64,000 nucleotides of DNA, taken from Vulcanimicrobiota bacterium (GTDB lineage Bacteria > Vulcanimicrobiota > Xenobia > Xenobiales > JADMJV01). Each line of letters starts with the position of its first letter. Positions within the stretch are counted from its first letter, which is position 1. Where the stretch lies: NCBI GenBank assembly GCA_050250895.1, contig JBFWNU010000001.1:1448008-1512007 (forward strand). The letters are read 5' to 3'. The translations under genes and the position numbers were made by a program. Shown in pieces: positions 9,607-28,149 of the stretch. The notes beneath the pieces were generated by a model. It was given only the letters and a program-made list of their open reading frames with translations, did not search any database and was not told the DNA's origin.

Positions 9607-10935
9607 GTGAATGCACGTATCGTCTGTCGTTCCTGTGAGCGAGACGTCTTCGTCGAGGCCGCTACTGCTCTGGGATATCAGACAGGCGCCCACCATAACT
9701 GGGCAGAGCTGCTGATCCTTGATTTGCGAATCGCCGAGGCCGAAGCCCTGTGGGAAGAATATCTGAGGGCCGACCCGCCGGGTACTGTGGTGCTGCTCAC
9801 CGCTGACCGCGAGCGGTGTCTAGAGTTGCTACCGGACCTGCCCGGCAAGCCCGTGGATGTGTTGATTCCGCCCATCGAGTCCGACCGGGTCATTGCGCGT
9901 ATCGCTCGGCTGGGGCGTAGTCATCGTCCCGAGAGCTTTCTCGAGCAGTTGATCGAGCATATCCCCCACATGATTTTCGTCAAAGAGGCCAGTACGCTTC
10001 GCTTCGTCCACTTTAACGCGGCGGGCGAAAACTTGCTGGGCATTCCTCGAAGCGAACTCATCGGCAAACGCGATCAGGATTTCTTTCCCCCACACGAGAG
10101 CGATTTCTTCACCGAAAGGGATCGCGAAGTGATTGCCGGGGGTCGACCGCTAGAGATTCCCGAGGAGCCCGTCCAGACTCGCTTTGGCGAGCGCCTGTTG
10201 CGCACCATCAAGATTCCGATCCGTGATGCCCAGGGCCGTATCTGTTATCTGCTTGGCCTTTCCGAAGACATCACCGAGCAGAAACGGGCCGAAGAGGCTC
10301 TGCGCGGACTGCAAGCCCGCTTGCGTTCGGCCCAGGAGCGCGAGCGACTGTCGATCGCCCGCGAGGTTCACGACGAACTCGGCCAGCTGCTGACGGCCCT
10401 CAAGCTCGATATTGCCTGGCTCGAACGCCGATTCGAGAACGATATCGCCATTCGGGACAAGCTCGAAGGCATGACCGTGCTGGTCGACAGCACCATCGGC
10501 ACGGCCCGCCGCATCGCCCATAGCCTGCGTCCGCAGATCCTCGACGACCTGGGTCTGCTGGCCGGTCTCGACTGGTTGGTTCGCGAGATCTGCGAACGCG
10601 GTGGGGTTCGTTGTCAGGTCCATTGCGATTTTGGCGATGGTGAGCCCTCGGAGGACGTGCGAGTGGCTCTCTTTCGTATCTGCCAGGAAGCGCTGACCAA
10701 TGTGGTGCGTCATGCCCGGGCCACCCAGGCCGAAGTCACTCTCAAGGCGGTGTCGGGGTCGGTACGTCTGGTGGTAGAAGACAACGGGCAGGGGATTGCC
10801 AGCGAGAACCTCACCGGCGTCACTCTGGGTCTAGCCGGCATGCGCGAACGGGCCGAACTTTTCGGTGGCCAACTCACGATCGAGCCTGGGGCTCAGCGTG
10901 GCACCAGGCTCGAGGTCATTCTGCCTACATACTGA
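9607..10935 (+). CDS. PAS-domain sensor histidine kinase (HisKA_3/NarX-UhpB type) with degenerate receiver-like N-terminus
   Basis: PAS (FVKEA..NAAGE..DFFP, DITEQK), ERLSIAREVHDELGQ, QEALTNVVRHA, EDNGQG, GLAGMRERA. Confidence 0.9.
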   Translation: MNARIVCRSCERDVFVEAATALGYQTGAHHNWAELLILDLRIAEAEALWEEYLRADPPGTVVLLTADRERCLELLPDLPGKPVDVLIPPIESDRVIARIARLGRSHRPESFLEQLIEHIPHMIFVKEASTLRFVHFNAAGENLLGIPRSELIGKRDQDFFPPHESDFFTERDREVIAGGRPLEIPEEPVQTRFGERLLRTIKIPIRDAQGRICYLLGLSEDITEQKRAEEALRGLQARLRSAQERERLSIAREVHDELGQLLTALKLDIAWLERRFENDIAIRDKLEGMTVLVDSTIGTARRIAHSLRPQILDDLGLLAGLDWLVREICERGGVRCQVHCDFGDGEPSEDVRVALFRICQEALTNVVRHARATQAEVTLKAVSGSVRLVVEDNGQGIASENLTGVTLGLAGMRERAELFGGQLTIEPGAQRGTRLEVILPTY

Positions 10936-13033
10936 CCATGGCCACCGAGTTGACGTTGACCTTCGGGGCGATTTCGTTCCAGCTGAGCAACACCAGGTTG
11001 GGGAAGGAGCGCTCGGTCAGTTTGCGCAAGGCCGGTCGCACGGGCGGCGAGGTCAGCAGAATCGGCTGCAAACCGCGCTCTTGCAGGCTTTGCACTTGAG
11101 CCGAGATAGCCTGTAGGATCTCTTGACCGACGTTGGGGTCGAGGGTCAAGAACGAGCCCTGTTCGGTTCTCTGGATAGCCGCCTGGATGGTCTGCTCGAT
11201 TCCCGGGTCGAGGGTGATGACGTTGATGGTTCCCTCGTTGTTCATGTACTCCTTGCAGATCGAGCGCGACAGCGAAACGCGGGCGAACTCGGTGAGCATC
11301 TCGGGATCCTTGGTCATGCCGACGTTGTCGGCCAGGGTTTCTAGAATCGACACCAGGTCACGGATAGAGACGCGTTCTTTGACCAGGTTCTGAAGCACCT
11401 TCTGGCATTCGCCCAGAGTAAGAGCATCGGGAATGACCTCTTTGACCACGGCCGGGTGGGTCTTCTTGATGGTGTCGATGAGAGCCTGAACTTCTTGGCG
11501 ACCCAGCAGCTCGCTGGCGTGGCTGCGAACCACCTCGGTCAACTGGGTGGCCACTACCGATACCGGGTCGAAGATCATACAACCGTAGCGCTCGGCGTCG
11601 CCGCGCTGTTCGGGCGAGATCCAGACGCCCGGCATTCCGTAGGTCGGGTCGACCGTCTTGATACCGCGCAGATTCTTGAGTTTGTCTTCAGGACCGATGG
11701 CCAGGAACTGGTTAACCTGGACCTCGCCCTGCGCGACCTCGATCTCTTTGATCTTGATGACGTAAGTGTTCGGTTTGAGCTGCAGGTTGTCGCGGAAACG
11801 CACGCCCGGAACCACGATACCGAGTTCCATGGCCACGTGACGGCGAATCGAGGTTACGCGTTCGAGCAGTTTGGCGCCCTGGTTGGGGTCCACCAGACTC
11901 AGCAGGCCACGACCGACCTCCAGCGAGATGGGGTCGACCTGCATCAATTGGACGACGCTCTCGGGCTTCTTGTTCTCTTTCTTCTTGGACTCTTGAACGT
12001 CTTGCTCGACCACTTCTTGAACGACTTCTTTGGACTTGGTCAAGACCACGCCGAAGTAGTAGAAGAATCCGCCGAGCACCAAAAAGGGGATCGGCGGGAA
12101 GGCTACCAGCCCGGTAAAGCCCAGCAGCGAGATCATGACCATAAAGCCGGCCGACAGCTTCATTACGTCGGGTCGGGCCGTGATCTGCTTGGCTAAGTCG
12201 TCACCGAGGTTGGAGTCCGAGGCGGCGCGGGATACCACCATACCCATCGAAGTCGACATCAGGAAGGCCGGCACCGTGGTCACCAGGCCGTTGCCGATGC
12301 TCAAAATAGCGTAGGTGTTAAGGGCGTCGCCGGCGCTCATTCCGTGATAGAGAATGCCGATCAAGATACCGCCCACGACGTTGACGATCATAATCACGAT
12401 CGACGCCATCGAGTCGCCTTTGACGAACTTACCGGCACCGTCCATCGAGCCGTAGAAGTCTGATTCGCGTTCGATTTGACGCCGCTTGAACTTGGCCTCG
12501 TCGGCGTTGATGGTGCCCGAGTGCAGGTCGGCGTCGATGGCCATCTGCTTACCCGGCATGGCATCGAGGGTAAAGCGGGCGGCCACCTGGGCGATACGCT
12601 CGGCACCGTTGGTGATGACCATCAGCTGAATGATGATGAGAATCAAAAACATGACGAAGCCGACTACCAGGTTGCCGCCGACCACGACCTTACCGAAGGC
12701 CGGAATCAGCCGGCCGGCACCGATGGGGTCGCCGGTTACAGGGTCTTTGATGTTACCGTAGAGCAGCACCATGCGGGTGGAAGACACGTCGAGAGCGAGT
12801 CGAAACAACGTCGCCACCAGCAACAAAGTTGGAAATACCGAGAATTCGAGAGGTTCTTCGATGTAGATCGAAATGAGGATGGTGATAATGGCCGAGGCGA
12901 TGTTGAGCACCAGCAACATGTCGAGCAGCTCGGGGGGCATCGGCACGATCAGCATGAACACGATGCCGATGACGCCGACCGCGGTGGCCACGTCCGAGAA
13001 CTTGAGTAGTTTAATTAAAGGATGGTCTTGCAC
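10925..13033 (-). CDS. flhA: type III export gate FlhA
   Basis: FSVFPTLLL, AARFTLDAMPGKQMAIDADL, DFYGSMDGAGKFVKGD, large cytoplasmic domain with LVKERVSIRDL. Confidence 0.97.
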   Translation of the reverse strand: MQDHPLIKLLKFSDVATAVGVIGIVFMLIVPMPPELLDMLLVLNIASAIITILISIYIEEPLEFSVFPTLLLVATLFRLALDVSSTRMVLLYGNIKDPVTGDPIGAGRLIPAFGKVVVGGNLVVGFVMFLILIIIQLMVITNGAERIAQVAARFTLDAMPGKQMAIDADLHSGTINADEAKFKRRQIERESDFYGSMDGAGKFVKGDSMASIVIMIVNVVGGILIGILYHGMSAGDALNTYAILSIGNGLVTTVPAFLMSTSMGMVVSRAASDSNLGDDLAKQITARPDVMKLSAGFMVMISLLGFTGLVAFPPIPFLVLGGFFYYFGVVLTKSKEVVQEVVEQDVQESKKKENKKPESVVQLMQVDPISLEVGRGLLSLVDPNQGAKLLERVTSIRRHVAMELGIVVPGVRFRDNLQLKPNTYVIKIKEIEVAQGEVQVNQFLAIGPEDKLKNLRGIKTVDPTYGMPGVWISPEQRGDAERYGCMIFDPVSVVATQLTEVVRSHASELLGRQEVQALIDTIKKTHPAVVKEVIPDALTLGECQKVLQNLVKERVSIRDLVSILETLADNVGMTKDPEMLTEFARVSLSRSICKEYMNNEGTINVITLDPGIEQTIQAAIQRTEQGSFLTLDPNVGQEILQAISAQVQSLQERGLQPILLTSPPVRPALRKLTERSFPNLVLLSWNEIAPKVNVNSVAMVSM

Positions 13034-13049
13034 GCTCGCTCCTTAGCCT

Positions 13050-14135
13050 CTACCGTCGTTTCTGTCTTCTCATCTGTCGTTTTCGCTTCAATTTTATGAC
13101 ATAGGCCAGAACTTCGGCCACCGCCTTGTAGAGCTCGGTGGGGATGGCCTGGCCCACTTCGCAGGCTCCGAACAGAGTTCGGGCCAGCTCGACGTTCTCT
13201 ACGATGGGCACATCGTGGTCTTCGGCCAGCACCTTGATCTGCTGGGCAATCAGCTTTTCGCCTTTGGCTACCACCGTGGGCACCGGCGATTCGTCCTTAT
13301 CGTATTTGAGCGCAATGGCCAGGTGGGTGGGGTTGGTGACCACCGCCGACGAGTTGGGAACCTCTTCCATCATGCGACCCTGCGAACCCTGGCGCATCAA
13401 CTGGCGCAGCTTGGCTTTGACCTGGGGGTTACCTTCGGTCTCTTTATACTCGTCTTTGAGTTCCTGGAAGCTCATCTTCATCTGCTTCATGAACTGCTTG
13501 TACTGAAAGGCGTAGTCGACCGCCGCGATGACGGTCATGCCGATCAAGACCTTCTTGACGATCTGCATGCAAATCGAAGTCACCAGTTGAGTGGTGGTGA
13601 GCAATTCCCAGTCGGCAGCCAGCATGAAGTTGGCCAGTTCTCCTTTGACCACCGACAGACAGATCCACCCCACGATCGTCAGCTTGGCGATCTGCTTGAA
13701 CAGCTCCATCAGCGACTTCATCGAGAAGATGCGCTTGAAGCCCTCGACCGGGTTGATCTTGTTGAGGGTGGGCTTGAGCGGCTCGAAGGTGAACAGCAGC
13801 TTGATCTGGGCCACGTTAGCGATGACTGCCATGATGAACACGCCCGCCAACAGGGGAGCCAGGGCAATAGCCACCGTGCCGACCCACCAGATCATCTCTG
13901 GCAGTAGCTCGCGCTCTTCGAAATTGTAATAAGGGATCTGCTCCCAGGCCTTTTTGGTAAAATCGGTGATGGTTTTCCACATGAAGCCACCGGCCGCATA
14001 CAGCATGCCGACGGCCGCCAGCAAGCCGGCGGTCGAAATGACCTCCTGGCTCTTCATCACCTGGCCTTTCTTGCGTTGCTCTTGAAGTTTATGTTCGGTT
14101 GGTTCTTCGGTTTTATCGCTATCCTGGCCACCCAA
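13050..14135 (-). CDS. flhB: export switch protein FlhB
   Basis: KTEEPT, EYKETEGNP, intact NPTH autocleavage motif, IVENVELAR. Confidence 0.97.
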   Translation of the reverse strand: MGGQDSDKTEEPTEHKLQEQRKKGQVMKSQEVISTAGLLAAVGMLYAAGGFMWKTITDFTKKAWEQIPYYNFEERELLPEMIWWVGTVAIALAPLLAGVFIMAVIANVAQIKLLFTFEPLKPTLNKINPVEGFKRIFSMKSLMELFKQIAKLTIVGWICLSVVKGELANFMLAADWELLTTTQLVTSICMQIVKKVLIGMTVIAAVDYAFQYKQFMKQMKMSFQELKDEYKETEGNPQVKAKLRQLMRQGSQGRMMEEVPNSSAVVTNPTHLAIALKYDKDESPVPTVVAKGEKLIAQQIKVLAEDHDVPIVENVELARTLFGACEVGQAIPTELYKAVAEVLAYVIKLKRKRQMRRQKRR

Positions 14136-14153
14136 AGCTGCCTCACCTCCTTT

Positions 14154-14954
14154 CTATTTTGGCGTTACTTCTCCGATAGTCCTGAAGACATCATCCAGAC
14201 AGATGTCGAACTGTTTTGTCAGCATGGTCAAAATGACCGGCAACCCGACCGAGAACATGGTCAAGCCGACGGCGATGTTGAGCGGGAAGCTCAACATGAA
14301 AACGTTCATTTGGGGGGCCACCCGGGCCAACAGCCCCAGCGCCACCTGAGTGATAAAGAGTGCGGCCAGCGCGGGCGAAGCGATCTGCAGGCCGATCACG
14401 AAGATCGAGGCGCTGATATCCACGAAGTGCGAGACCAGGTTTCCGTCGACGTTAAAGCCGGTCAGGGGCACGACCTCGAAGCTCTTGTAGATGGCGATCA
14501 TCAGCTGGTGATGGCCGTCGACCACGAGATAGAGCAGCATCGCGATGTAGAAATTCAGGCGCATCAGCAGTTTCGAGGCGCCGCCTGAGGAGGGGTCCAT
14601 GGAGGCGGCTACCGACAGACCCATCTGGATGTCCATCATTTCGCCGCCAAACTGAGCCGCCGCCATCACCGTAAACGAGGCGAACCCGATGGCCAGGCCC
14701 ACCACCAACTGAGTCAGGATGGCCAGAATAAAGCCCAGGGGCTCGGTGGGAAAATAGGCGGGAATGGGCAGATTGGGAAAGGCGACGATCGTCAACAGCG
14801 AGGCGATACCGATGCGCACCTTCGAGTTGTAGTGCTTACTACCGAAGATCGGGGCCTGAATCATCACCATCACGATGCGAGCAAAGGCTAGCAGCCCGCA
14901 CCCCAGTGCGATCCAGAGGACCTCGTTGATTTCGCGCTGTCCTGCCATGGCCAT
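14154..14954 (-). CDS. fliR: export gate FliR
   Basis: GEMMDIQMGL, DGHH, ARVAPQMNVF; position between fliQ and flhB. Confidence 0.95.
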   Translation of the reverse strand: MAMAGQREINEVLWIALGCGLLAFARIVMVMIQAPIFGSKHYNSKVRIGIASLLTIVAFPNLPIPAYFPTEPLGFILAILTQLVVGLAIGFASFTVMAAAQFGGEMMDIQMGLSVAASMDPSSGGASKLLMRLNFYIAMLLYLVVDGHHQLMIAIYKSFEVVPLTGFNVDGNLVSHFVDISASIFVIGLQIASPALAALFITQVALGLLARVAPQMNVFMLSFPLNIAVGLTMFSVGLPVILTMLTKQFDICLDDVFRTIGEVTPK

Positions 14955-14960
14955 CGTGCG

Positions 14961-15260
14961 TTACCCCGATGGTCCTATGCTGCCCACGTCGGTAAAGATG
15001 CGGATGGCGTAACTGCTGACCATGTTGGCAATCCAGGTTCCGCAGACCACCAGCGAGAGGAACGTGGCCACGATCTTGGGCACGAACGACAGGGTCTGTT
15101 CCTGTACCTGAGTCGTGGCTTGCAAGATACTGATAAATAGACCGACTGCCAGAGCCGACATCAACATGGGGGCAGAGAGGATCAAGATGAGATACAATGC
15201 CTCCGTACAGATCTCCATGATGTAGGCATCTGTGAACATCTCTTCAGCGAATATCAGCAT
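14961..15260 (-). CDS. fliQ: export gate FliQ
   Basis: GLFISILQATTQVQEQTLSFVPK. Confidence 0.96.
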   Translation of the reverse strand: MLIFAEEMFTDAYIMEICTEALYLILILSAPMLMSALAVGLFISILQATTQVQEQTLSFVPKIVATFLSLVVCGTWIANMVSSYAIRIFTDVGSIGPSG

Positions 15261-15305
15261 GTCGTTTCCTCCCTTCTTGAAAAATAGTCAACCAACGAGC
15301 CGCAC

Positions 15306-16106
15306 CTATGGAGGCATGTTCTCCATGTGGAAGCTCTTGACCAGGCCTTTGATGATCAGGTGCCAACCGTCGATCATGACGAACAGCAACAGTTTGAACG
15401 GCAAAGAGATGGTCATCGGGCTGAGCATGAACATACCCATCGACATCAGCACCGAGGCCACAATCATATCGATGACCAGAAATGGCAGATAGAGCAAGAA
15501 GCCGATCTCGAAGGCGGTCTTGATCTCGGAGAGCACGAAAGCCGGCAACAGAACGTAGATGGGCGCGTCGTTGCGCGACTCGACCTTCTGTTGAGACAGT
15601 TCCAGGAAGAGGATCAGGTCCTTGTCGCGGCACTGCAACAGCATGAACTGTCGGGGCGGGGTAGTCAGCTTGACCATGAACTCTGGCTGCTCCATGGTGC
15701 CGGCCAGATAGGGCTGGATGGCCTCCTTGTTCATCTTGATCCCGACCGGGGCCATGACGTACATGGTGATGAAGAGCGCCAGGCCCATCAACACCTGGGT
15801 AGACGGCACCTGTTGCGTGCCCAGGGCGGTGCGCAAGAAGCTCAGCGTGATGGTCGTCCTGATGAAGGCGGTGCTCATGATCAGGATGTACGGGGCCAAC
15901 GTCAAGGTGGTCAGGAAGAACATGACCTGCAGGAACGATGAGGTCTTGGCTCGTTCGTCCTGGTTGGCTCCGTCGATGGTGATCTTGGGCATCTCGATGC
16001 TGGGGAACTCGTTCTGGGCCTCGACCGGAGAGTAGGCGCCGATCAGACCCACCAGCACCACGGCCAGGAGGAGAATGCCCAACCAGCGGCCGGTTCGAGC
16101 GCTCAT
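15306..16106 (-). CDS. fliP: export gate FliP (with N-terminal signal peptide)
   Basis: PAFVLSEIKTAFEIGF, YLPFLVIDM, ISLPFKLLLFVMIDGW. Confidence 0.96.
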   Translation of the reverse strand: MSARTGRWLGILLLAVVLVGLIGAYSPVEAQNEFPSIEMPKITIDGANQDERAKTSSFLQVMFFLTTLTLAPYILIMSTAFIRTTITLSFLRTALGTQQVPSTQVLMGLALFITMYVMAPVGIKMNKEAIQPYLAGTMEQPEFMVKLTTPPRQFMLLQCRDKDLILFLELSQQKVESRNDAPIYVLLPAFVLSEIKTAFEIGFLLYLPFLVIDMIVASVLMSMGMFMLSPMTISLPFKLLLFVMIDGWHLIIKGLVKSFHMENMPP

Positions 16107-16759
16107 TTCTTCACCCCCATGCCGGGTAGAATCGAGGCGTAGTGGCGCAAAATTTCTTTGTAAGACTGAGGCGGGTCGCCGGACTCGGTGGTGTCGACCT
16201 TGATCGGGCGAGCCGCTTCAAGCTCTTCGGTGGTCAGCTCGCAAAGGGGATTCATGGCGTGCTCGGTCATGCCCACCACCAGGATCTTGCCGGCCACCTC
16301 GACCAGGGAGATGGAATGGGTATGGCTCAGGCGCTGGGTCTCGAGCACTTTGAGGAGGGGCTCACTGGCGCTGGACTTGCCGAAGACCCCGGGGGCGATG
16401 GTGGCCAGGCCCTTCAGAGTGCCCCACACCAGCAGGCAGGTGAGGATGAGCGGCAGCATCAAAGCCCGCAGGTCGGCCAGAAAGCCGTCGTTGGGGGCCC
16501 AATCCGGATCGACTCTGGGGTTCCAGGGGTGGGCCTGACCATAGCTGGGGCCCACCTGATGCTGACTGGGGTTGAGGGCCTCACCGAAGGTTACCGGTCG
16601 CTTGTCGGTCTGGCTGTGAGCCGGCGGTGAGGCGGGCGCGTCTTTGGGCCGCGGCGTGATCCGGGCCAGGGTGAACAGCAGCAGGATGAGCATGCAGGCC
16701 ATGGCGCCCGCCACCAACGGAGAGTTACGCCCAGCCTTGTTATAACCCACACCCTGCAT
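16103..16759 (-). CDS. fliO: FliO-like export chaperone
   Basis: TM helix followed by LKVLETQRLS..ISLVEVAGKILVVGMT; position upstream of fliP. Confidence 0.8.
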   Translation of the reverse strand: MQGVGYNKAGRNSPLVAGAMACMLILLLFTLARITPRPKDAPASPPAHSQTDKRPVTFGEALNPSQHQVGPSYGQAHPWNPRVDPDWAPNDGFLADLRALMLPLILTCLLVWGTLKGLATIAPGVFGKSSASEPLLKVLETQRLSHTHSISLVEVAGKILVVGMTEHAMNPLCELTTEELEAARPIKVDTTESGDPPQSYKEILRHYASILPGMGVKK

Positions 16760-17031
16760 CAATTCATCAATTCGGTGATCCGAACTCCGTAATTTCCCTC
16801 GATCTCTACTACTTCGCCCCTGGCGATGAGGGTCCCGTTGACCACCAGGTCGACGGGGTCGTTGCCGTCTTTGTCGAGTTCGATCACCGCTCCCTCACCG
16901 AATTTCAACACGTCACGCACGCTCTTGGTGGTTCGCCCCATCTCGGCTTCGACGATAAAAGGCACGTCGTAAAGGATGGTAAGATCTTCCCTTTTCTTGG
17001 GCCGTTGAGGCTGTGCGTTGTAATCTTCCAC
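16759..17031 (-). CDS. fliN: FliN/SpoA-domain C-ring protein (copy 2)
   Basis: DVPFIVEAEMG, GAVIELDK, PVDLVVNG, ARGEVV, YGVRITE. Confidence 0.88.
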   Translation of the reverse strand: MEDYNAQPQRPKKREDLTILYDVPFIVEAEMGRTTKSVRDVLKFGEGAVIELDKDGNDPVDLVVNGTLIARGEVVEIEGNYGVRITELMN

Positions 17032-18309: not shown

Positions 18310-18456
18310 TCGGACCCCCGTCCGCTACCCTACGACTCCCCCATTCGTCCGGATTCGTCGAGGGAGCGAGGTACCCTGGTTTTAACTCTCGCTTTTGGGC
18401 CGACAGCGAGACCAGGTTAGAGTCAGAAGGCCATCCGATGAGGATGGCTCTCAAGA

Positions 18457-19308: not shown

Positions 19309-19404
19309 TCGAAATGGTCCTCTCCTTATTTCAACCCTGTGGTGCGGGGCTGTCCCGCTGTTTCTTTCCTACAAAATTCCTCGATTTTAGAGTAACCGAG
19401 GGCA

Positions 19405-19443: not shown

Positions 19444-19452
19444 CTACTCGAC

Positions 19453-20388: not shown

Positions 20389-20396
20389 CGTGCCTC

Positions 20397-21041
20397 CTAG
20401 ATGCTCTGTCCGTGGTTGGAACTGTAGTAACGATAGTTGTCGAGAACCTTGGCTACGTAATCTTGCGTTTCTTGATAGGGAGGAACGCCGCCGTGCTTTT
20501 CGACTGCACCGGGACCGGCGTTATAACCGGCGATGACTTTGGTCAGGTTGCCGTCGAAGCGGTCCATCAATTGGCGCAGATAGAGGGTGCCGCCCATGAT
20601 GTTCTGATAGGGATCGTAGGAGTCGGTCACTCCCAGCCCGGCAGCCGTCTCGGGCATCAATTGCATCAAGCCCTGGGCGCCTACATAAGAGGTGGCCTTG
20701 GGGTTATAGGCCGACTCTTGCTTGATGACCGAGCGAATCAGGGCCTGATCCACACCGTGTTTCTTCGAGGCCTCGGCGATCATGCCATCAAAATCCTTCG
20801 AGTCGCCATTCCAACGGTTGGCGTTGAGTTTGGCCGGGCCCGAACGAGCGTCATAGCGCTGATCGTCGGCCAGAGAATTGACCAGGCTCTCGAAGGTCAC
20901 CCCTTCGTTGCCGGCCGGCGCGCCGCTGGTCAGATTGGTCTGGCCGGCGTTGGACTGAAATCCGGCTCGCCCTCCCTCGAGTTTCGAATCGAGTTGGGCG
21001 ATCTTCTTCTCGATCGCGGCCATTCTATTGAATACTGACAC
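20397..21041 (-). CDS. soluble lytic transglycosylase (SLT domain)
   Basis: VIKQESAYNP, GAQGLMQLMP, AGYNAGPG, ETQDYV. Confidence 0.93.
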   Translation of the reverse strand: MSVFNRMAAIEKKIAQLDSKLEGGRAGFQSNAGQTNLTSGAPAGNEGVTFESLVNSLADDQRYDARSGPAKLNANRWNGDSKDFDGMIAEASKKHGVDQALIRSVIKQESAYNPKATSYVGAQGLMQLMPETAAGLGVTDSYDPYQNIMGGTLYLRQLMDRFDGNLTKVIAGYNAGPGAVEKHGGVPPYQETQDYVAKVLDNYRYYSSNHGQSI

Positions 21042-21052
21042 GATGTTCCTCC

Positions 21053-21526
21053 CTATCGCTCTTCGGCTGCTTCGCGTGCCTCACGGGCAAACTTGATGGT
21101 CGCTAGTTCGTCGATCAGACGGGCCTCGACAGCGTCCATCTCGGCCACCCATTCCTCCTGGCACTTTTCCTTGTGTTTTTCGTAGACTTTCTTCTCTTGA
21201 GCCGCCTTCAGTAGAGCTTTCCTCTGCTCTATGATTCTAATGGCTAGCTCTCGTAGACGCAACTCCTGGCTTTTTATTTTGTTCTCTAGATTCTTGATGT
21301 GGGCGGGGTAGAAGCGTAGTTCTTCCATGTTGAGGCTGCCGCTCAGGTGCTTGGTTTTGAGCGTCAGGCGGACATCCCTCAACGTCTGTTCGAGCTGGGC
21401 TTTGACCTGCTTTTCGTAAGCCTCTTGCTCGAGCAGCTTGGCCAGCTTTTCTTTCTCTTCTTCCTCTCGCTTGACTTTGAACTCGAGTACCTTCTCGAGT
21501 CGATACTTGAACTTTTTCGGCGGCAC
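21053..21526 (-). CDS. fliJ: export stalk protein FliJ
   Basis: KFKYRLEKVL N-terminus, coiled coil, LIDELA; follows fliI. Confidence 0.85.
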   Translation of the reverse strand: MPPKKFKYRLEKVLEFKVKREEEEKEKLAKLLEQEAYEKQVKAQLEQTLRDVRLTLKTKHLSGSLNMEELRFYPAHIKNLENKIKSQELRLRELAIRIIEQRKALLKAAQEKKVYEKHKEKCQEEWVAEMDAVEARLIDELATIKFAREAREAAEER

Positions 21527-22845
21527 TAGTCTTTGAAGATCCTTCTCAGGTGATCCATCATTTCGTCAAAGGTGCTTTGCTCGTGGATGCCTTGTTTGAG
21601 AAAGGCGGCAATGGCGTCGTTCTTGGCGATAGCATAGTCGACCTTGGGGTTGGAGCCGCGCTGGTAGGCGCCGATGTTGATCAGGTCTTCGTTCTCGCGG
21701 TAGGTGGCCATGGCGTTGCGCAGGCGCCCGGCCAGCTCTTGATGCTCTTTGGTGGCGACTTCGGTAAATACACGAGAGACCGACTGCAGCACGTCCACGG
21801 CCGGATACATATTCTTGTGGGCGATCTTACGCGACAAGACGATGTGGCCGTCGAGAATACCACGAACCGCATCGGCGATCGGCTCGTTCATGTCGTCGCC
21901 GTCGACGAGCACGGTGTAGACAGCGGTGATCGTTCCCTTGGGGGAGGTGCCGGCCCGCTCCATCAGCTTCGGCAAGAGGGCAAAGCAAGAAGGCGTATAG
22001 CCTTTGGTAGCGGGAGGCTCCCCGATGGCCAGTCCGACTTCGCGCTGAGCCATGGCAAAACGCGTCACCGAGTCCATCATCAGCATCACGTTGTAACCCT
22101 GGTCGCGGAAGAACTCAGCCACCGCCGTGCCTGTGTAGGCGGCCTTGAGGCGCACCAGGGCAGGCGTGTCGGAGGTGGCCACCGCCACCACCGAGCGCTT
22201 CATGCCTTCTTCGCCCAGGTCGCGCTCGAGAAAGTCACGCAACTCACGGCCACGCTCGCCGATGAGGGCCAGCACCGCAATGTCGGTTTCGGAAAAGCGC
22301 GCGATCATGGACAGGGTGGTCGATTTACCGACGCCCGAACCGGCGAAGATTCCTACACGTTGGCCGCGGCCGAAGGTCAGGGTCGAGTCCAGCACGCGAA
22401 TGCCCATCGAGATGCGCTCTTCGATGCGCGGTCGGGTGATCGGGTTGGGTGGCGTGTTGTAGATGGGATACTCCTCTTCGCAGTCGAGGGGACCCAGGCC
22501 ATCGATCGGTTCGCCCAGACCGTCGAGTACGCGCCCCAAGAGTCCCCAGCCCACCTTCACCATGAGCGGCTTGCCCGTCGAGCGAACCTCGCATCCCGGG
22601 CCGATGCCACCCATCTCGCCCAGGGGCATGAGCTGGACCCGGTTGGCTTTGAAGCCTACCACCTCGGACCGGATGGAGCGTCCCTCCTGGTCATAAATGT
22701 AGCATAGCTCACCCAGTCGCACGGCCGGTCCCTCGGACTCGATGGTCAGGCCGATGACCTGCACCACTCTGCCGTGCTGCTTGATAGTCTGGATGCGAGG
22801 CAATATCTTTTCGTAGCGGCTAAAATCGACGGCTAACTCAGCCAT
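21526..22845 (-). CDS. fliI: type III export ATPase FliI
   Basis: GIFAGSGVGKST, LIGERGRE, MDSVTRFAMAQRE, GEPPATKGY, ILDGHIVL; start at ATG 22845. Confidence 0.96.
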   Translation of the reverse strand: MAELAVDFSRYEKILPRIQTIKQHGRVVQVIGLTIESEGPAVRLGELCYIYDQEGRSIRSEVVGFKANRVQLMPLGEMGGIGPGCEVRSTGKPLMVKVGWGLLGRVLDGLGEPIDGLGPLDCEEEYPIYNTPPNPITRPRIEERISMGIRVLDSTLTFGRGQRVGIFAGSGVGKSTTLSMIARFSETDIAVLALIGERGRELRDFLERDLGEEGMKRSVVAVATSDTPALVRLKAAYTGTAVAEFFRDQGYNVMLMMDSVTRFAMAQREVGLAIGEPPATKGYTPSCFALLPKLMERAGTSPKGTITAVYTVLVDGDDMNEPIADAVRGILDGHIVLSRKIAHKNMYPAVDVLQSVSRVFTEVATKEHQELAGRLRNAMATYRENEDLINIGAYQRGSNPKVDYAIAKNDAIAAFLKQGIHEQSTFDEMMDHLRRIFKD

Positions 22846-24049
22846 TCTCTTCCTCCTGCGAGAACTCGGGCTCGGCCTCGAACTCGGGCTCGGGGGTGAA
22901 TTCTTCTTCGGGTGCAAAATCGGGCTCTTGAGGGGTAACCTCTTCGAGCCCCTGGAAGTCGGGGTCGCCGGGGACCTCGACCGGTTCGGTGGCGGCCTGG
23001 TTGGCGAGTTCTTCTTCGCGCAGTTTGGCCATCTCTTCCATGCCGTGGCGAATCGCATCGAGCTGAGTATGTAATCTGGCGTCGATGTTGCCCAGGTTGG
23101 TCTCGATGGTGCAGCCGCCCGGATCGATGGTCGGATCGGCCACCACCTCAAAGCTCTTGAGCCCTTCGACCATCCGCTCGAAGCTGGCGCGATGATCGCG
23201 TACGATCTGCACATCTTGCGGGTTGACCCGGATCGAGACCTCCTCTCGGTCCTTGATGGCGCCCAGTGCCTGGCGCACGATGGCTAGAATGACCTCGGGG
23301 TCGACCTTGATGGCTTCGCCTAGCACCCGCTCGGCGATCTTGACCGCCAACCGGGCGAGTTCGGGCTCGACCGTGGCCACGATGGCCCGCCGGGCCCGCA
23401 CGGCCTGAACATACATATCCTTGGCCTGGGCAATCCGCTCGACGAACTCGCCCACCGAGGCGTTGTAGCCCTGCTGATGGCCGGCCTGTAGGCCTTCTTG
23501 ATAACCACGCTCGCGAGCCTGCTCTTCGGCCTGCTGGGCCGCCTGCTGGGCCTGCGTGGCCGTCTGCTGCATGTAGTGCTGGGCCTGGGCCTGAGCTTCT
23601 TGCAGCATCTGCTGGGCTTTCATCCGGGCCTGCTCGAGGATCTGCTCGTCGATGGGCGGACCCTTCTGCACCTCTTCTTCGGGCTCTTCCAGGTCTTCGT
23701 CGTCAAACTCGAGTTCGATGGGATCGGGCTGGGGTGGGGCCGGCGGCCGATCGCCGCCCACGATCAGCGTCTGGGTCAGCGGATTGAGGGTGCTCGGCTT
23801 GGTCTCGACCCTCGGCTTGCCACCGATGACACGGCCGGTGCTCTCGACCCTGGGCGGGCTGACCAGCGTCTGCTCGAAGGGAGGCTCCGGCTCGGGTTCG
23901 GGTTCTTCGTCGTCGCGCTCGAGCTGGGTGGGATGCATGGGAGCAAAGCTCTGCCCCTCGGCGTTGTCACGGTGCCGATACAGGTTCGACGAGGGAGCGG
24001 CGGGTTTTTGCTCTACGCTTTCTCCCTTTTTGCGCTTGATGAGTGCCAC
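22838..24049 (-). CDS. fliH: FliH/SctL ATPase regulator with long acidic Pro-rich extensions
   Basis: GYQEGLQAGHQQG repeats, IRVNPQD, GGCTIETNLGNIDA. Confidence 0.88.
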   Translation of the reverse strand: MALIKRKKGESVEQKPAAPSSNLYRHRDNAEGQSFAPMHPTQLERDDEEPEPEPEPPFEQTLVSPPRVESTGRVIGGKPRVETKPSTLNPLTQTLIVGGDRPPAPPQPDPIELEFDDEDLEEPEEEVQKGPPIDEQILEQARMKAQQMLQEAQAQAQHYMQQTATQAQQAAQQAEEQARERGYQEGLQAGHQQGYNASVGEFVERIAQAKDMYVQAVRARRAIVATVEPELARLAVKIAERVLGEAIKVDPEVILAIVRQALGAIKDREEVSIRVNPQDVQIVRDHRASFERMVEGLKSFEVVADPTIDPGGCTIETNLGNIDARLHTQLDAIRHGMEEMAKLREEELANQAATEPVEVPGDPDFQGLEEVTPQEPDFAPEEEFTPEPEFEAEPEFSQEEENG

Positions 24050-24058: not shown

Positions 24059-25060
24059 CTATTTGAACTTGATCTTGCCCAGGGTCACCAACCCCCTGAG
24101 GATGTTGCGAATCTGCTGTTGGGCGGCCTTGGTTTCGTCGAAGGGCACCTGGCCCAGACTCTCGACATCGTCGCGCAGAGCCTTGGCCACCTCGGGCGAG
24201 AGGAAGCGATAAATGCGCTCGGCCAGGTCCTTGTTGGCACCCTTGAGGGCCAGCACCAGGTCGCGAAAGTCGGTCAACCGCAGCACCTGCTGCAGCGAGT
24301 TGTCGTCAATATTGTTGAGGTCTTCGAAGTCACACAGCTTGGTCTTGATGTCGCTGGCCAGCCGCGGGCTCTTCTGAGTCAGCCCGGAGAGCACGCTGGC
24401 TTCGGTGCCGCGGTCCGCCTGGTTGAGAATCTGCAGCAACGTTTCCTTGCCATCGCTATGGCTTTGGAAGCCCTCCTCGAGCGCCTTGTGCAGGCGGCCC
24501 TCGAGAATCTTCTCGAGTTCAGAGACTACCTCGCTCGAAACGTGGCCAAGCTCGGCCAACCGCTTGGCCACCTCGGTCTGGGTGGTCGGCGTGAGTTCGC
24601 CGAGCACCGCCGAGGCCTGGTTGGAGTCTAGATAAGACAAGACCACGGCGATGGTCTGCGGGTGCTCTTTGCGGATCAGATGGATCAGTTGGCGCGGATC
24701 GACTTTGCGTAAGAAGCCCAGCGGACGATTGGCCGCCGCACCGGGCGGGCCGCCCATGGTCGGCGGCATCGACTTGCTGCCCATCATGGGCTGGGTGAAA
24801 GCTGCGTGGGCCGGAGCGGTCGGCGCCGAGCCGCCTCCGCCGGAGGACTGAAGAAATTCTTCGATGACTTGAGCTCGGATCTCGGGGGAGATCTGAGGCA
24901 GCTTCGAGATCTCGAGAGTGATGGCCTGAACTTCTTCGGGGCCGAGTTCTCGAAACAGTTGCGCCGAGACCTCGGGAGGGAGCGACATCAGCAAGATAGC
25001 CGCTTTCTGCTTAGGAGGCAGGTTGCTGGTCGAAATGGCCTTCCACTTTCCTTTCTGCAT
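24059..25060 (-). CDS. fliG: C-ring protein FliG (degenerate torque helix)
   Basis: QKAAILL, EHPQTIA, FEDL, LALKGA, LRDD, AQQQI. Confidence 0.93.
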   Translation of the reverse strand: MQKGKWKAISTSNLPPKQKAAILLMSLPPEVSAQLFRELGPEEVQAITLEISKLPQISPEIRAQVIEEFLQSSGGGGSAPTAPAHAAFTQPMMGSKSMPPTMGGPPGAAANRPLGFLRKVDPRQLIHLIRKEHPQTIAVVLSYLDSNQASAVLGELTPTTQTEVAKRLAELGHVSSEVVSELEKILEGRLHKALEEGFQSHSDGKETLLQILNQADRGTEASVLSGLTQKSPRLASDIKTKLCDFEDLNNIDDNSLQQVLRLTDFRDLVLALKGANKDLAERIYRFLSPEVAKALRDDVESLGQVPFDETKAAQQQIRNILRGLVTLGKIKFK

Positions 25061-25116: not shown

Positions 25117-26790
25117 CTAGGACAGCCAGGTGCTCTTGAGCATCTCGGCCACTTTGGTGGGACGCTCTTTGGCCAGCTGTTCTAGCTGCTCGTTGGTGTT
25201 GACTTTGGTCTCGCCAGCGCTCGGAGGAGCGGTCGACTTGCCCGACTTCTCGTTGAGCAGGTCGGCGATGTCGGTCGAGGTGGCGCCCGAGGTGCCGCCC
25301 AGGACCAGTTTGCCCTGGTTGACCTGGACCGAGTGCTGCTTGACCATGAAGGTCAGAATCAGACCCAGGAAGACCAGCGCCACAGCCGTGCCAGCGATGG
25401 TCAGGTGGCGAGCGGTCAAGCCGCCGCCGCCGGCCGTCTCGCCGAAGCCGGGGGGAGGGGTGATGGCCAGATCAGTGCCACCAACCGCCGGACGATAGAT
25501 AGGCATGCTCTCGACCACGACGCTGTCGCCGCGGGCTTCGTCGATACCGATAGCGTTGCGCACGATACCGGCAATCTTGGCCACCTGGTCTTCTTTGAGG
25601 TTGTCAACGACCACCGAAGCGGTCTTGCGTTTGACGCGATAACTCTTGTCTACGGTGCGGGACACGGTCTTGCTGGTGTCGATCTTGACCGACTCGACCT
25701 CGTGCACATAGTTGTTGTTGCTGGTCCCGCCGGATGAAGCCTGTTCGACATCGGTGGACAACTGGCGGGCGTTGGAGCTGCCGCCGGCGTTAGGATCCTT
25801 CGAGTAGCTCTCGACCTTCTTCTGGCGGCCCACTACGACGGTGCCCTGGTCAGCCGGTCCGCCCACCACCGAACGGGTTACTTCGTTTTGGGAGAAGTCG
25901 AGTTCGGCATTCACGGTGGCCACGGCTTTGCCCGGGCCGAGAACTTTGTCGAGCTGGTCTTGAACCTTTTGGGTTAGCTCTTTTTCAATACCCAGCTGGG
26001 TCTCTTGTTGGGTGCCAGCGACTTGCGCGCCGTCGGGGCCCTGAGGCAACTGGGCGGTCAGGTCCATTCCCATGGTGTCCACGATTTTGACGTGCTCGGG
26101 CAAGAGTTCAGGCACCGAGAAAGAGACCAGATGGACGATGCCAGCGATCTGCTCGCGGGTCAGCTTGGCGCTCGGCTCGAGTTTGACCAGCACCGTGGCG
26201 GTGGTCGGGCGCGAGTCGTCGCGGAAGTAGGTCTGCTCGGGAATGGCCAGCTTGATGTAAGCGTCGGCCACGCCTTCAACCTGGCGAACGGTTTCGGTCA
26301 GTTCGCCCTCCAGCATCCGCTGGCGTAAAGCTTTCTGTTCGGCCTGAGTCTTGGCCTGAATGCCACCTTCGGGGGTATTGTAGGGGGTGGTGATAGCGTG
26401 CCGGGGCAGGCCTTTGGCAGCCAGGGCCACCTGGGCACGAGCTTTGGTTTTGGGAGAGACCAGAATGCCGTCGAGCAAGTCCACATTGTGGGGGATGCCC
26501 AGGCTGGTGAGTTCCATCGCCACGGCCTTGGTGTCTTCGTCGTTAAGCTTCGTGGTGTAGAGAGGCACGTAGGCGTTGGCCGTGTTGGAGTGGACCACGA
26601 AGGCCGTTCCCAAAATGGCGATCACCAGAAATGCCGAAAGAGCGATCTTGGTACCTTTGCCAAGTCCCTCCCACATTTCTTTGATTTTTCCCAGGGGCCC
26701 GCCTCCGCCGGCTGGACCTTTCCCGATTGCGGAGCGTCCTGTTGCCAGGCGACTGCCGCTTTTCATCCCCGTTTGGATCCCGGTGGCCAT
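25117..26790 (-). CDS. fliF: MS-ring protein FliF
   Basis: Two TM helices, LEGELTETV, LAIPE, TATVLVKL, IVHLVSFSVPEL, C-terminal PTKVAEMLKSTWL. Confidence 0.93.
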   Translation of the reverse strand: MATGIQTGMKSGSRLATGRSAIGKGPAGGGGPLGKIKEMWEGLGKGTKIALSAFLVIAILGTAFVVHSNTANAYVPLYTTKLNDEDTKAVAMELTSLGIPHNVDLLDGILVSPKTKARAQVALAAKGLPRHAITTPYNTPEGGIQAKTQAEQKALRQRMLEGELTETVRQVEGVADAYIKLAIPEQTYFRDDSRPTTATVLVKLEPSAKLTREQIAGIVHLVSFSVPELLPEHVKIVDTMGMDLTAQLPQGPDGAQVAGTQQETQLGIEKELTQKVQDQLDKVLGPGKAVATVNAELDFSQNEVTRSVVGGPADQGTVVVGRQKKVESYSKDPNAGGSSNARQLSTDVEQASSGGTSNNNYVHEVESVKIDTSKTVSRTVDKSYRVKRKTASVVVDNLKEDQVAKIAGIVRNAIGIDEARGDSVVVESMPIYRPAVGGTDLAITPPPGFGETAGGGGLTARHLTIAGTAVALVFLGLILTFMVKQHSVQVNQGKLVLGGTSGATSTDIADLLNEKSGKSTAPPSAGETKVNTNEQLEQLAKERPTKVAEMLKSTWLS

Positions 26791-26865: not shown

Positions 26866-27216
26866 TTAGAGCTGCATCTGGAACAGCTGAGTGGTGGCTT
26901 GGGCCATCTTGCCCACCACGGTGGTGGTCAGCTTCATCATCACCTCGGCCTTGGCGCCGGCGATGGTCATCTCGTGCAGGCCGTCCATGTTGCCGCTCAA
27001 CAGGTTGTTGGTCGACTTGATGGAGCCGTCGATGGTCGTGTTGACGGTGTTGAGGCTCTCAGCCAGCACGGCGCCGAAGGCTTTACCGTTTTCTTCGGAC
27101 TGACCGGGCTGCTCGATCATTTTCGGCATGCCGATGCCGGAGATCGGGGAACCGGTGGTTCCGATGCCGCTTACGCCGGAAGTGATACCCTGAATGGATT
27201 GAAAGGGGGACTGCAT
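26866..27216 (-). CDS. fliE: FliE-like adaptor (divergent C-terminus)
   Basis: FGAVLAESLNTVN, LHEMTIA..KAE, terminal MQL; position between flgC and fliF. Confidence 0.8.
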   Translation of the reverse strand: MQSPFQSIQGITSGVSGIGTTGSPISGIGMPKMIEQPGQSEENGKAFGAVLAESLNTVNTTIDGSIKSTNNLLSGNMDGLHEMTIAGAKAEVMMKLTTTVVGKMAQATTQLFQMQL

Positions 27217-27227: not shown

Positions 27228-27710
27228 TTAGCCTTTACCGATCTCGAGAGCTTTCATCGCCATCGCTTTCGCCGATTCGATGGTGGTTGCGTTAGCCTCG
27301 TAGGCGCGACTGGCGGCCATCATCGAGGTCATTTCTTGAATGATGTTGACGTTGGGCATCGCGACGTAGCCTTTGCGATCACCCTCCTTTTCGGCGTTGG
27401 GATTGGTGGGGTCGTAGACCCAGCGGAAGTCGCTATTGTCTTCCATAATCCCGTTGACGCCGACACCGCCGCCCGAGAAGTTGACTTTGTTGTTGAAGTC
27501 GAACTCGCCGTCCATCGAGGCAGTGGTGAACGCCTGGTCGAACATCTCGGCCTGCTTGGCATTGATCACGGCAACCTGACGGCGGTAAGGATCTCCGTCT
27601 TCGGTTTTCGAGGTGTTCGCGTTGGCGATGTTGTTGGACACCACATCCATACGGAACTGCTCGGCGCGCATTCCGCTGGCTGCAATATCGAAGGTCTGGA
27701 AGAATTTCAT
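27228..27710 (-). CDS. flgC: proximal rod protein FlgC
   Basis: ASGMRAE, NNIANANT, PYRRQ, YDPTNPNA, GYVAMPNVN, ASRAYEAN. Confidence 0.96.
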   Translation of the reverse strand: MKFFQTFDIAASGMRAEQFRMDVVSNNIANANTSKTEDGDPYRRQVAVINAKQAEMFDQAFTTASMDGEFDFNNKVNFSGGGVGVNGIMEDNSDFRWVYDPTNPNAEKEGDRKGYVAMPNVNIIQEMTSMMAASRAYEANATTIESAKAMAMKALEIGKG

Positions 27711-27729
27711 CTAGTCTGCCTCTCTCGTC

Positions 27730-28149
27730 TTATCGACCGCTGTTTTCGACAACCCACTTCAGGGAGCCGTAGATGCCCGAGATCTTCGAAGCCAGAGCGT
27801 TATACATAATCTGGTTCTTGGCCAGACTGGCCATCTCGGAGTTGACATCCACCTTACCGCCCACATCTTCGATGGTGGGCTGCAGGCTGGCTTTGGTCCA
27901 ACCGCCGGCGCCATCAATGGCGAACTCGGGGTCGACTACTCCGGCGGGGCTGAAATCGGTGTCAGAGCCGGCGGCCTCGTCATTGTCCATCGCTTCGCGC
28001 AGATGATTCTCGAAAGCAACGGTCTGGGCTGTGTAGCCCTCGGTATTGACATTGGCCATGTTGTTCGAGATGACTTGCTGGCGCAGCGTGGCCGCACCGA
28101 TAGCCTTCTCTAACAGCGTTGTGTCAACAAGTTGAAACGGCTTCCCCAA
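27730..28149 (-). CDS. flgB: proximal rod protein FlgB
   Basis: LRQQVISNNMANVNTEGY, VDVNSEMASLAKNQIMYNAL; TTG start after AGGAGGAG. Confidence 0.9.
   Translation of the reverse strand: MGKPFQLVDTTLLEKAIGAATLRQQVISNNMANVNTEGYTAQTVAFENHLREAMDNDEAAGSDTDFSPAGVVDPEFAIDGAGGWTKASLQPTIEDVGGKVDVNSEMASLAKNQIMYNALASKISGIYGSLKWVVENSGR

Follow-up and report, generated by a model that had tools for sequence, protein, structure and literature searches.

A stretch of 64,000 nucleotides from the genome of a Vulcanimicrobiota bacterium (GenBank assembly GCA_050250895.1, contig JBFWNU010000001.1), the whole of which is hereafter referred to as the window, carries a single operon of 20 flagellar genes, flgB to flhA, at positions 28149 to 10925 of the minus strand. 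In our assessment, this operon rather probably encodes a functional, non-rotating and filament-less descendant of a Firmicutes-type flagellum, inherited across the Xenobia-like Vulcanimicrobiota and engaged in the export of substrates other than flagellin. The motor-less and filament-less character of the system is well supported by the distribution and location of the motility genes and by alterations in FliG and FliM, and a role in secretion is plausible in view of the parts retained.

Distribution of the operon and of the motility genes

The window corresponds to C1:1448008-1512007 of the genome G000, and coordinates given without a contig refer to the window. The genome comprises 9.5 Mb in 17 contigs, is 99.6% complete and is thus not reduced, as a sequence-only reading of the window had held. 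Comparisons were performed with 40 relatives, from the same genus to the same class (41 genomes when G000 is counted, of which 24 have at least 90% completeness and at most 5% contamination). The phylum-scale tallies covered 201 genomes, with G177 included in these tallies alone. The closest FliM relatives in named records are metagenome-assembled genomes (MAGs) titled Vulcanimicrobiota, Candidatus Bruticola (class Ca. Xenobia), rumen bacteria and, in two cases, 'uncultured Burkholderiales'.

FliF of the window type was identified in 39 of the 40 relatives, 38 of them at 45-69% identity and G040 at 37%, and was not found in G035 (85% complete). The parts required for motility are distributed very differently. 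Flagellin/FlgL, FlgD and FliD were each matched by Pfam models in 8 of the 41 genomes, FlgI in 7 (the L-ring protein FlgH was not searched for) and the MotB plug in 10, two of these weakly; FlgD and FlgI always adjoin a second flagellar gene set. The genomes with motility parts are always G000, G006-G010, G018 and G040, which are exactly the holders of a second FliF of 27-30% identity. The window-type system is present in 32 relatives that gave no match to flagellin, FlgD, FliD or FlgI, and two of the 32 show weak MotB-plug matches. FliL was matched in none of the 41 genomes, flagellated ones included, and is thus uninformative.

The pattern is consistent within the family f3, whose 19 genomes (1.9-4.7 Mb, many of them 95-98% complete) yielded no match to flagellin, FlgD, FliD or FlgI. 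No gene of the MotA/ExbB family was matched in six of the f3 genomes, one of which is G017 (96% complete, 20 contigs), and the other flagellin-less genomes have one to three such genes of TolQ/ExbB size. Exactly four Flg_bbr_C proteins, namely FlgC, the short FlgE and an adjacent FlgF-FlgG pair, are present in 27 of the 33 flagellin-less genomes (the remainder having five in one genome and fewer in five incomplete genomes), and since all four are otherwise accounted for, these 27 genomes have no FlgK. FlgM and FliS were found in none of the four flagellin-less genomes tested. In the phylum tally, FlhA sequences of at least 62% identity occur in the families f1-f14 and f17-f19, in which flagellin was matched in 20 of 67 genomes, G000 not being counted.

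The operon was located at 16 relative loci that span order and class level, with full-length, intact genes and the same gene order wherever sequence is present; it is complete in 8 of the 16, the rest being partial stretches, and the loci L015 and L020 have one FliN stretch. Identities to the relatives are 69-95% for FlhA, 51-90% for the short FlgE and 35-66% for FliF.

Second flagellar gene set in the same genome

Searching the whole genome revealed another FlhA of full length, 45% identical and located at C1:585-588 kb, which belongs to a dispersed but complete flagellar set on the same contig as the operon. This set includes fliI, flgD, a long flgE, motA/motB and fliP at C1:121.7-129.6 kb; fliN/fliM, flgL, flgK, flgM, flgG and flgI at about C1:545-564 kb; flagellin (a 626-codon frame), fliD, fliS, a second FliA-like sigma factor and a second motA/motB pair at C1:571-578 kb; and flhA, flhB, fliR, fliQ, flgC, fliF and fliG at C1:586-593 kb. 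Its FliG and FliM are just 24-30% identical to those of the window, and it is present in 7 of the 40 relatives, patchily over the families. The stators, flagellin, cap and junction proteins are tied physically to this second set; the CheW genes are not so linked.

The caution of the sequence-only reading that motAB, flagellin and flgFG might be encoded elsewhere proved apt, the flgF-flgG pair lying at C1:1291915-1293516 and the stators and flagellin beside the second set. The same reading would have given way to an ordinary flagellum if stators, flagellin, hook cap, junction proteins and chemotaxis genes had been encoded with no second flagellar operon. The genome does encode all of these, but a second flagellar set exists and the motility parts are linked to it.

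Motility interfaces of FliG and FliM

The FliG of the window was aligned with the FliG of Thermotoga (T. maritima), and then with 12 orthologues and the second FliG of the same genome. The EHPQ motif is retained in the window FliG, and so are the acidic pair and the conserved lysine. The first arginine of the torque helix is replaced by E or D and the second by P or S in all the 13 window-type sequences, so that two of the five conserved charged residues of the stator-facing ridge are changed in each, and in none of the 13 is the MFxF hinge kept, LCDF standing in its place. The second FliG of the genome keeps both arginines and has MFVF at the hinge. The functional roles of these residues are presumed from work on E. 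coli and Thermotoga.

The CheY-binding N-terminus of the LSQxEIDALL type is missing in the 10 window-type FliM sequences aligned, and the second FliM of the genome begins with MSANLSQLEIDALI, in which the CheY-binding peptide is present. The loss of motility motifs from FliG and FliM, noted from the sequence alone, thus held in the alignments, with the paralogues of the same genome retaining both features. We infer that the C ring no longer faces stators or CheY.

Flagellar identity of the export apparatus

NCBIfam models place the operon proteins on the flagellar side. FlhA scores 802 bits against a cut-off of 772 for the flagellar model TIGR01398 and 615 bits against a cut-off of 692 for SctV. 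FlhB passes the flagellar flhB model and scores 337 bits with the SctU model, below its cut-off of 358. FliI (FliI clade 2) and FliF also clear the flagellar cut-offs. Pfam searches of the 20 operon genes and the flanks found no secretin SctC, SctD, SctJ or needle protein SctF. The model scores support a system that is derived from the flagellum and is no injectisome, in line with the sequence-only reading, which had set it apart from canonical injectisomes.

Selection and transcript evidence

Two flagellin-less genomes of one genus (loci L017 and L023) were compared for the ratio of nonsynonymous to synonymous substitution rates (dN/dS), which ranged from 0.007 to 0.056 for 16 of the 20 operon genes; dS could not be computed for the other four and was elsewhere 0.3-2.2, partly saturated. 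Values for the short FlgE, FliG, FliK and FliM were 0.010, 0.029, 0.042 and 0.056, respectively. The operon is under strong purifying selection in the flagellin-less genomes, and the low dN/dS together with the intact synteny shows that it is no relic.

Strains close to the window organism were detected in wastewater and sludge runs, with run shares of at most 0.22; the contigs matching the window in these runs are 95-99% alike and thus represent a close strain or species, not necessarily the window organism. In three RNA-library runs of one wastewater study, contigs of 95-99% likeness cover flgB-flgC (27808-28277, depth 29-35), fliE-flgC and the region from flgE to fliJ (18550-21683, depth 8-13.5). 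The depth of a DNA run over these operon parts is 3-5.

Organisation of the operon

The 20 co-oriented genes follow the order flgB-flgC-fliE-fliF-fliG-fliH-fliI-fliJ-SLT-fliK-short flgE-fliM-fliN-fliN-fliO-fliP-fliQ-fliR-flhB-flhA. Pfam, its PF00771 model and NCBIfam recovered the same fla-che order that had been read from the sequence alone. The operon is bounded at the flhA side by a convergent PAS-HisKA_3 histidine kinase gene (9607-10935), no co-oriented gene being present downstream of flhA, and at the flgB side by a divergent open reading frame (ORF) of 151 codons (28503-28958). Inspection of the gaps found nothing in the slots that hold flgD, fliL/motAB, cheY and flhF/flhG in a Bacillus-type operon. 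The gap sizes (144 nt for fliK-flgE and 183 nt for flgE-fliM) and the 4-nt overlap of the second fliN with fliO bear out the empty slots of the sequence-only reading. A candidate gene in the flgE-fliM gap, orf81 (18209-18454, 81 aa), was rejected, having no Pfam match and a conserved piece of only 21 residues, which lies inside fliM of one locus.

The ring and rod genes, all on the minus strand as are those that follow, comprise the proximal rod genes flgB (27730-28149; PF00460; syntenic in the relatives), flgC (27228-27710; PF00460 and PF06429) and fliE (26866-27216; PF02049), the MS ring gene fliF (25117-26790; PF01514 and PF08345; passing TIGR00206) and the C ring genes fliG (24059-25060; FliG_N, FliG_M and FliG_C domains), fliM (17326-18309; PF02154 and PF01052; true start probably a few codons downstream of the annotated one) and two conserved fliN copies (17031-17333 and 16759-17031; PF01052 in both).

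The ATPase complex is complete, with fliH (22838-24049; PF02108 at residues 211-332), fliI (21526-22845; PF00006 and PF18269; passing the FliI_clade2 model TIGR03497) and fliJ (21053-21526; PF02050). The true start of fliH is probably downstream of 24049, and its relatives align only from about residue 47-136 onwards. The fliI ORF opens at 23214, its likely start being M124 at 22845. In FliI, the Walker A motif AGSGVGKS lies at 291, and MLMMD at 377 resembles Walker B. The gate genes are likewise complete: fliO (16103-16762; PF04347), fliP (15306-16106; PF00813), fliQ (14961-15260; PF01313), fliR (14154-14954; PF01311), flhB (13050-14135; PF01312; passing TIGR00328) and flhA (10925-13033). The FlhB autocleavage site NPTH, at residue 268, is invariant across the 10 sequences compared. 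Both NPTH and the Walker motifs had been seen correctly in the sequence-only reading, which had also cited an 'FHIPEP motif' in FlhA. FHIPEP is in fact the acronym of the family and no sequence motif; the domain itself (PF00771) matches at 846 bits.

A lytic transglycosylase of the SLT type (20397-21041; PF01464), which presumably opens the peptidoglycan for the rod, is encoded between fliJ and fliK, in the same position as in the relatives. It is followed by the gene for the length ruler and switch protein FliK (19453-20388; PF02120; 29-57% identity in the relatives) and by that for a short FlgE-type axial protein of 271 aa with the D0 and D1 domains only (18493-19308; PF22692 and PF06429). 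This axial protein matches only the FlgE/F/G subfamily model of NCBIfam, and a profile of 22 orthologues scores hook FlgE chains at 119 bits versus 96 bits for FlgG. In its AlphaFold2 model (predicted local distance difference test, pLDDT, 83.1), a D0 coiled coil and a D1 barrel are present and D2 is absent, with template-modelling (TM) scores of 0.7-0.8 to hook and distal-rod chains and 0.81 to one hook chain. Its relatives are annotated publicly as 'flagellar hook (basal-body) protein'.

The G+C content of the operon at 12001-22000 is 56-60%, versus 61-65% across the remaining window. As the operon is conserved across the lineage, compositional constraint is more likely than recent transfer. 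Elsewhere in the window, two genes at 4910-8259, both unrelated to the operon, encode a protein whose N-terminal domain is of the urate-oxidase type (PF06181) and, after it, a 728-aa protein in which a metallo-beta-lactamase fold is fused to a cyclic-nucleotide-binding domain.

Satellite locus, sigma factor and orf151

A satellite locus at G000:C1:1289951-1294728 encodes a FliK-like protein (523 aa, with weak Flg_hook and DUF6240 matches), the FlgF and FlgG proteins mentioned above, of which FlgG passes TIGR02488, a FlgJ-type rod-binding protein (98 aa, flgJ-N) and a sigma factor of the FliA/WhiG family that passes TIGR02479 (202 bits versus a cut-off of 189.6). The locus is conserved in all four relatives examined, three of which are flagellin-less.

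The divergent ORF beside flgB opens at 28503, and its likely start is M32 at 28596, giving a helical protein of 120 aa (orf151; 28596-28958, plus strand). The protein occurs in Atlas from residue 32 onwards, in clusters named 'hypothetical protein' only, and it has no Pfam match, FlgM included. It is conserved divergently upstream of flgB in the six loci checked and is single-copy in all 41 genomes, lying on the fliF contig, 2-4 kb from fliF, in most of the others. Its AlphaFold2 model (pLDDT 75.9) consists of helices and has no fold match in PDB, the best E-value being 2.8. The predicted complex of orf151 with the FliA/WhiG sigma has a median score of 0.82, versus 0.00 for the best of three controls; this mark is reached by 58 of 80 solved complexes and by 2 of 110 mismatched pairs. 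Contact agreement between the runs is at least 47% and the partner pLDDT at least 67, and most of the predicted interface is formed by region 3 of the sigma and the end of its region 4. The modelling supports binding of orf151 to the sigma factor and makes it a candidate anti-sigma partner of the FliA/WhiG sigma of the system.

The divergent regulatory region (28150-28595) contains two TGTTAACA palindromes (28279-28286 and 28290-28297), 11 nt apart, which are the only such pair in the genome, and the sequence TTAACA-N16-GAAACA, of fixed spacing, at 28257-28284 of the flgB strand. This block of palindromes and TTAACA-N16-GAAACA is conserved upstream of flgB in nine loci across the order. The RNA-library contigs end within the region, at 28231-28277. 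A single TGTTAACA is also present upstream of the satellite operon. A promoter-like motif of orf151, TTTAC-N16-17-GKGATAA, was discarded, as it is not enriched (7 matches versus 12 in the reversed genome).

Soluble FlhA-C paralogues and the cell envelope

The FlhA residues aligned with D456, F459 and T490 of Salmonella, which we take to form the chaperone-docking dimple of the cytoplasmic domain (FlhA-C), are D, Y and T, and are conserved. A soluble FlhA-C paralogue of 461 aa (C6:529281-530666) has full-length orthologues of 43-63% identity in all five genomes tested, four of them flagellin-less; its neighbours include just a weakly conserved HTH_17 protein. The dimple residues and the soluble paralogues suggest that substrate docking is still in use.

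In all, G000 encodes eight soluble proteins in which FlhA is represented by its cytoplasmic domain alone (about positions 320-656 of FHIPEP), the others being located at C1:2013805-2014935, C1:2473604-2476609, C7:121829-122929, C1:1126937-1128244, C7:117220-118743, C1:2008332-2009819 and C8:31611-33212. Some of them are fused to an XRE-type helix-turn-helix domain, to a FliG_N domain (1001 aa) or to the C-terminal domain of FlhB, and a separate protein of 137 aa at C2:81306-81719 combines a transmembrane segment with FliG_N. The relative G002 has 12 matches.

BamA is present in all five genomes tested, and the cells are therefore taken to be diderm. A cultured member of the phylum is described as having an outer membrane with lipopolysaccharide and as lacking a flagellin gene, as far as the cited account goes (PMC9758169). 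Secretins number two to five per genome, none of them near the locus; those of G000 are at C1:929853 and C1:2282742.

Other flagellar homologues in the phylum

In the other large families of the phylum, f15 and f20, flagellin-less genomes have retained another FlhA, about 42-44% identical, next to an incomplete group of flagellar genes, such as fliQ-fliR-flhB-flhA at L048 (G050:C1:2781500-2801400) and a FlgE-like gene with fliN, fliP, fliQ, flhB and flhA at L049 (G088:C2:946000-965900). No FliM match was found in the three such genomes searched, and these loci may represent a second kind of reduced flagellar set. In genus g2, a full-length FlhA of 62-66% identity (G002:C21:61649-63739, G004:C2:158508-160577, G008:C70:59457-61532, G010:C23:3909-6002 and on G012:C683) occurs on top of the 83-84% orthologue in four of five genomes; the searches made turned up no matching extra FliF or rod proteins. 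G000 also has an orphan third FliF-like gene (C2:554979-556562), 33% identical over its full length, flanked on its two sides by genes for a ClpB-like AAA protein and for a PAS-SpoIIE phosphatase and without further flagellar genes in its vicinity. FliF-like copies of 31-37% identity are present in at least 10 relatives with large genomes.

Proposed mechanism and alternative explanations

In the reading preferred here, a complex of rings and export gate would assemble in the inner membrane, with the FliF/FliG/FliM/FliN scaffold acting as a sorting and docking platform for FliH and FliI and not as a rotor. The rod proteins FliE, FlgB, FlgC, FlgF and FlgG would leave through the gate, the peptidoglycan would be opened by the FlgJ-type cap together with the SLT enzyme, and a short FlgE-type stub would be added without a FlgD cap. 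FliK would flip the specificity of the autocleaved FlhB towards late substrates other than flagellin, for which orf151, with its disordered N-terminus and its putative sigma-binding helical body, would be the first candidate. With orf151 exported, the FliA/WhiG sigma would be released by a checkpoint of the FlgM type and would thereby turn on a non-flagellar regulon, which may include the real cargo. Delivery may stop in the periplasm, since no P ring, no L ring (FlgH not having been searched for) and no secretin linked to the locus were found, or may use a further outer-membrane part. In G000 the device would work beside a separate, complete flagellum.

Several points weigh against this reading. 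The operon proteins remain flagellar equivalogs by NCBIfam, without injectisome-like divergence. A FlgE polymer formed without a cap is an assumption, FlgD being required for hook assembly in model flagella. The conserved D, Y and T of FlhA-C fit chaperoned late substrates, yet the known chaperones are missing. Neither an exported cargo nor an outer-membrane conduit was found, in hosts that are diderm and whose secretins are far from the locus. Of the flagellum-derived, motor-less type III secretion system (T3SS) proposed in the sequence-only reading, the motor-less part is well supported, the system occurring apart from motility parts in 32 of the 40 relatives with its FliG and FliM interfaces lost, and the secretion part lacks a non-flagellar cargo. 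The regulon of its own, also proposed, fared similarly: a conserved FliA/WhiG sigma with a predicted binding partner beside flgB favours it, but scans for promoter motifs defined no regulon. As regulon markers, the sigma-28 consensus TAAA-N13-17-CCGATA[AT] gave three genome matches, none informative, and TTAACA-N16-GAAACA gave 12 matches at no more than one mismatch, nine of them upstream of co-oriented genes, with mixed products (of 10 downstream proteins, five have no Pfam match and the others are of SNase, P-type ATPase, RR-BTAD and EF-hand types). Further, the orf151-sigma prediction is a model confidence obtained on alignments of 4 and 5 rows, the gene absences derive from Pfam models applied to MAGs, and CheW/CheA genes, present in all five genomes tested, leave room for a chemosensory link. 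The RNA-library contigs are a hint of expression, as such libraries can hold DNA, had no silent-stretch control here and give contigs that show no level.

It is improbable that the operon encodes, wholly or in part, a second flagellum of the ordinary kind, with the missing hook cap, junction, filament, stators and rings supplied in trans from elsewhere or too divergent for the models. G000 does encode flagellin, FlgL, FlgK, FlgD, FliD, FliS, FlgM, FlgI and two MotAB pairs, and an ordinary flagellum would also accord with core proteins that clear the flagellar and not the injectisome cut-offs, with flgF/flgG and fliA encoded away from the operon, with a short FlgE, which is normal in Firmicutes, and with the CheW/CheA genes. 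However, the motility parts adjoin the other set (C1:121-130 kb and 545-593 kb) and occur only in the 7-8 genomes that have it, the 32 relatives without them keep the window-type system, the six f3 genomes lack any MotA/ExbB-family gene, and the two stator-facing arginines of FliG and the CheY-binding peptide of FliM are lost. The notion of a functionless leftover of an ancestral flagellum, now in decay, would explain why many flagellar genes are missing, but is very improbable given the intact, full-length genes in the same order at 16 loci up to class level, the dN/dS values in flagellin-less genomes, the FlhA identities and the RNA-library contigs over parts of the operon.

It is also unlikely, though deserving of more weight than these two, that the rod-ring structure itself is the product and no cargo is exported, the structure being an anchor, a scaffold or a nanotube- or hat-like complex, or that the output is confined to a FlgM-like checkpoint, the timing of a developmental or stress regulon being set through the FliA/WhiG sigma. 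The failure to find cargo or an outer-membrane pore fits this view, as does the strict co-conservation of the sigma and the predicted sigma-binding orf151 with the system. FliA-family sigmas drive non-flagellar programmes in Streptomyces and Chlamydia. Hat-like complexes related to the flagellar T3SS (fT3SS), with a link to membrane tubes, are reported in a preprint (bioRxiv 10.1101/2021.09.03.458937), as far as its account goes. Against this view, about 27 genes under strong purifying selection, the FliK and FlhB switch included, would be a heavy price for a switch, and the conserved docking residues of FlhA-C together with the soluble FlhA-C paralogue point to substrate handling. Export of non-flagellin substrates by a non-rotating flagellar descendant is therefore preferred, and the operon probably serves something other than swimming. 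Since public annotation labels the operon genes as flagellar, motility may be over-predicted for the lineage.

A more far-reaching proposal, put forward tentatively, is that the flagellum was exapted a second time, and independently, as a non-rotating type III nanomachine, represented by the operon, which became fixed in the distant past throughout the Xenobia-like families and which accompanies a true flagellum in some cells. Such a machine would have kept the rod, ruler, switch and C ring, shed the cap, junction, filament, stators and P ring, and gained accessories of its own, namely a family of sigma-binding proteins, perhaps an exported checkpoint substrate, and soluble FlhA-C paralogues that perhaps sort cargo. 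If true, this exaptation would be a living parallel to the first step towards the injectisome.

Comparison with known systems

The Bacillus subtilis fla/che operon runs from flgB to flhA. The operon described here shares this order with Firmicutes-type operons, along with a clade 2 FliI, flagellar FlhA, FlhB and FliF, and flgF/flgG located apart, but it lacks flgD, fliL, cheY, flhF/flhG, the che genes and sigD. Unlike the hosts of a Firmicutes-type flagellum, most hosts here have no match for flagellin, FlgK/L, FliD, FliS, FlgM (the last two from the four genomes tested) or MotB; the FliG and FliM motility interfaces are lost, and an SLT enzyme gene precedes fliK. With the injectisome, the system would share the character of a non-rotating type III machine of flagellar ancestry with a ruler and an autocleaving switch, but its locus lacks a secretin, SctD, needle and translocon, and it has a full-length FliF instead of SctJ/SctD.

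Closer precedents are compared here as far as the cited accounts describe them. Buchnera aphidicola keeps basal-body and type III export genes without a filament, as in the present case, and a transport role has long been suspected (PMC8109811, PMC13468123). However, Buchnera is an obligate endosymbiont with a genome of roughly 600 kb, whereas the genomes considered here are of 1.9-9.5 Mb, with strains in wastewater and sludge, the P ring is missing and a full flagellum coexists in some of them. Lysobacter enzymogenes OH11, which is not flagellated, expresses a flagellar T3SS, and its fliI and flhB mutants lose the secretion of toxic proteins (PMC7688988). This is likewise a case of a flagellar T3SS retained without functional flagellin in a free-living bacterium, but it concerns a single proteobacterial species that still secretes FlgD, whereas the present system has a wider set of losses (FlgD, FlgK/L, FliD, MotB and FlgI) fixed over many families, and shows changes in the FliG and FliM motifs. 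The 'hat' complexes related to the fT3SS have been observed and their role is unknown (bioRxiv 10.1101/2021.09.03.458937).

Abby and Rocha (PMC3459982) reported flagellar genes in about a dozen species thought to be non-flagellated, and proposed an intermediate towards the injectisome, devoid of motility, that survives in the Myxococcales. This 'Myxo' T3SS resembles the present system in the loss of motility parts, the absence of a secretin and a gene order conserved over long divergence, and it was argued to be functional in translocation. It belongs, however, to the Sct clade, while the proteins studied here score above the flagellar cut-offs and below those of SctV and SctU, and FliG, the rod, FliK and a hook-type protein are kept. 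The two would therefore be separate exaptations. The literature searched holds, in the parts covered, no earlier description of this system; whether it was described before may be touched on by the TXSScan results for a related family, Ca. Eudoremicrobiaceae (Paoli et al. 2022), and by Table S8 of the paper on V. alpinum.

Studies of how the injectisome arose presuppose an intermediate in the form of a flagellum that has lost its motility parts and still exports protein, and the examples offered so far are the Sct-like systems of the Myxococcales, the remnants in endosymbionts and single non-flagellated species. The system described here differs from these precedents in its breadth and age over many families, in a coherent set of losses that includes the P ring, in motif remodelling with a control in the same genome, and in its conserved extra parts. 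The motility-less state appears to be stable over many families of a little-studied phylum, and the complete flagellum in the same genome serves as an internal control for the features lost, namely the FliG arginines, the CheY peptide of FliM, the cap, the filament, the stators and the P ring. Also of note are a candidate for a new family of anti-sigma proteins and the unusually expanded soluble FlhA-C domains.

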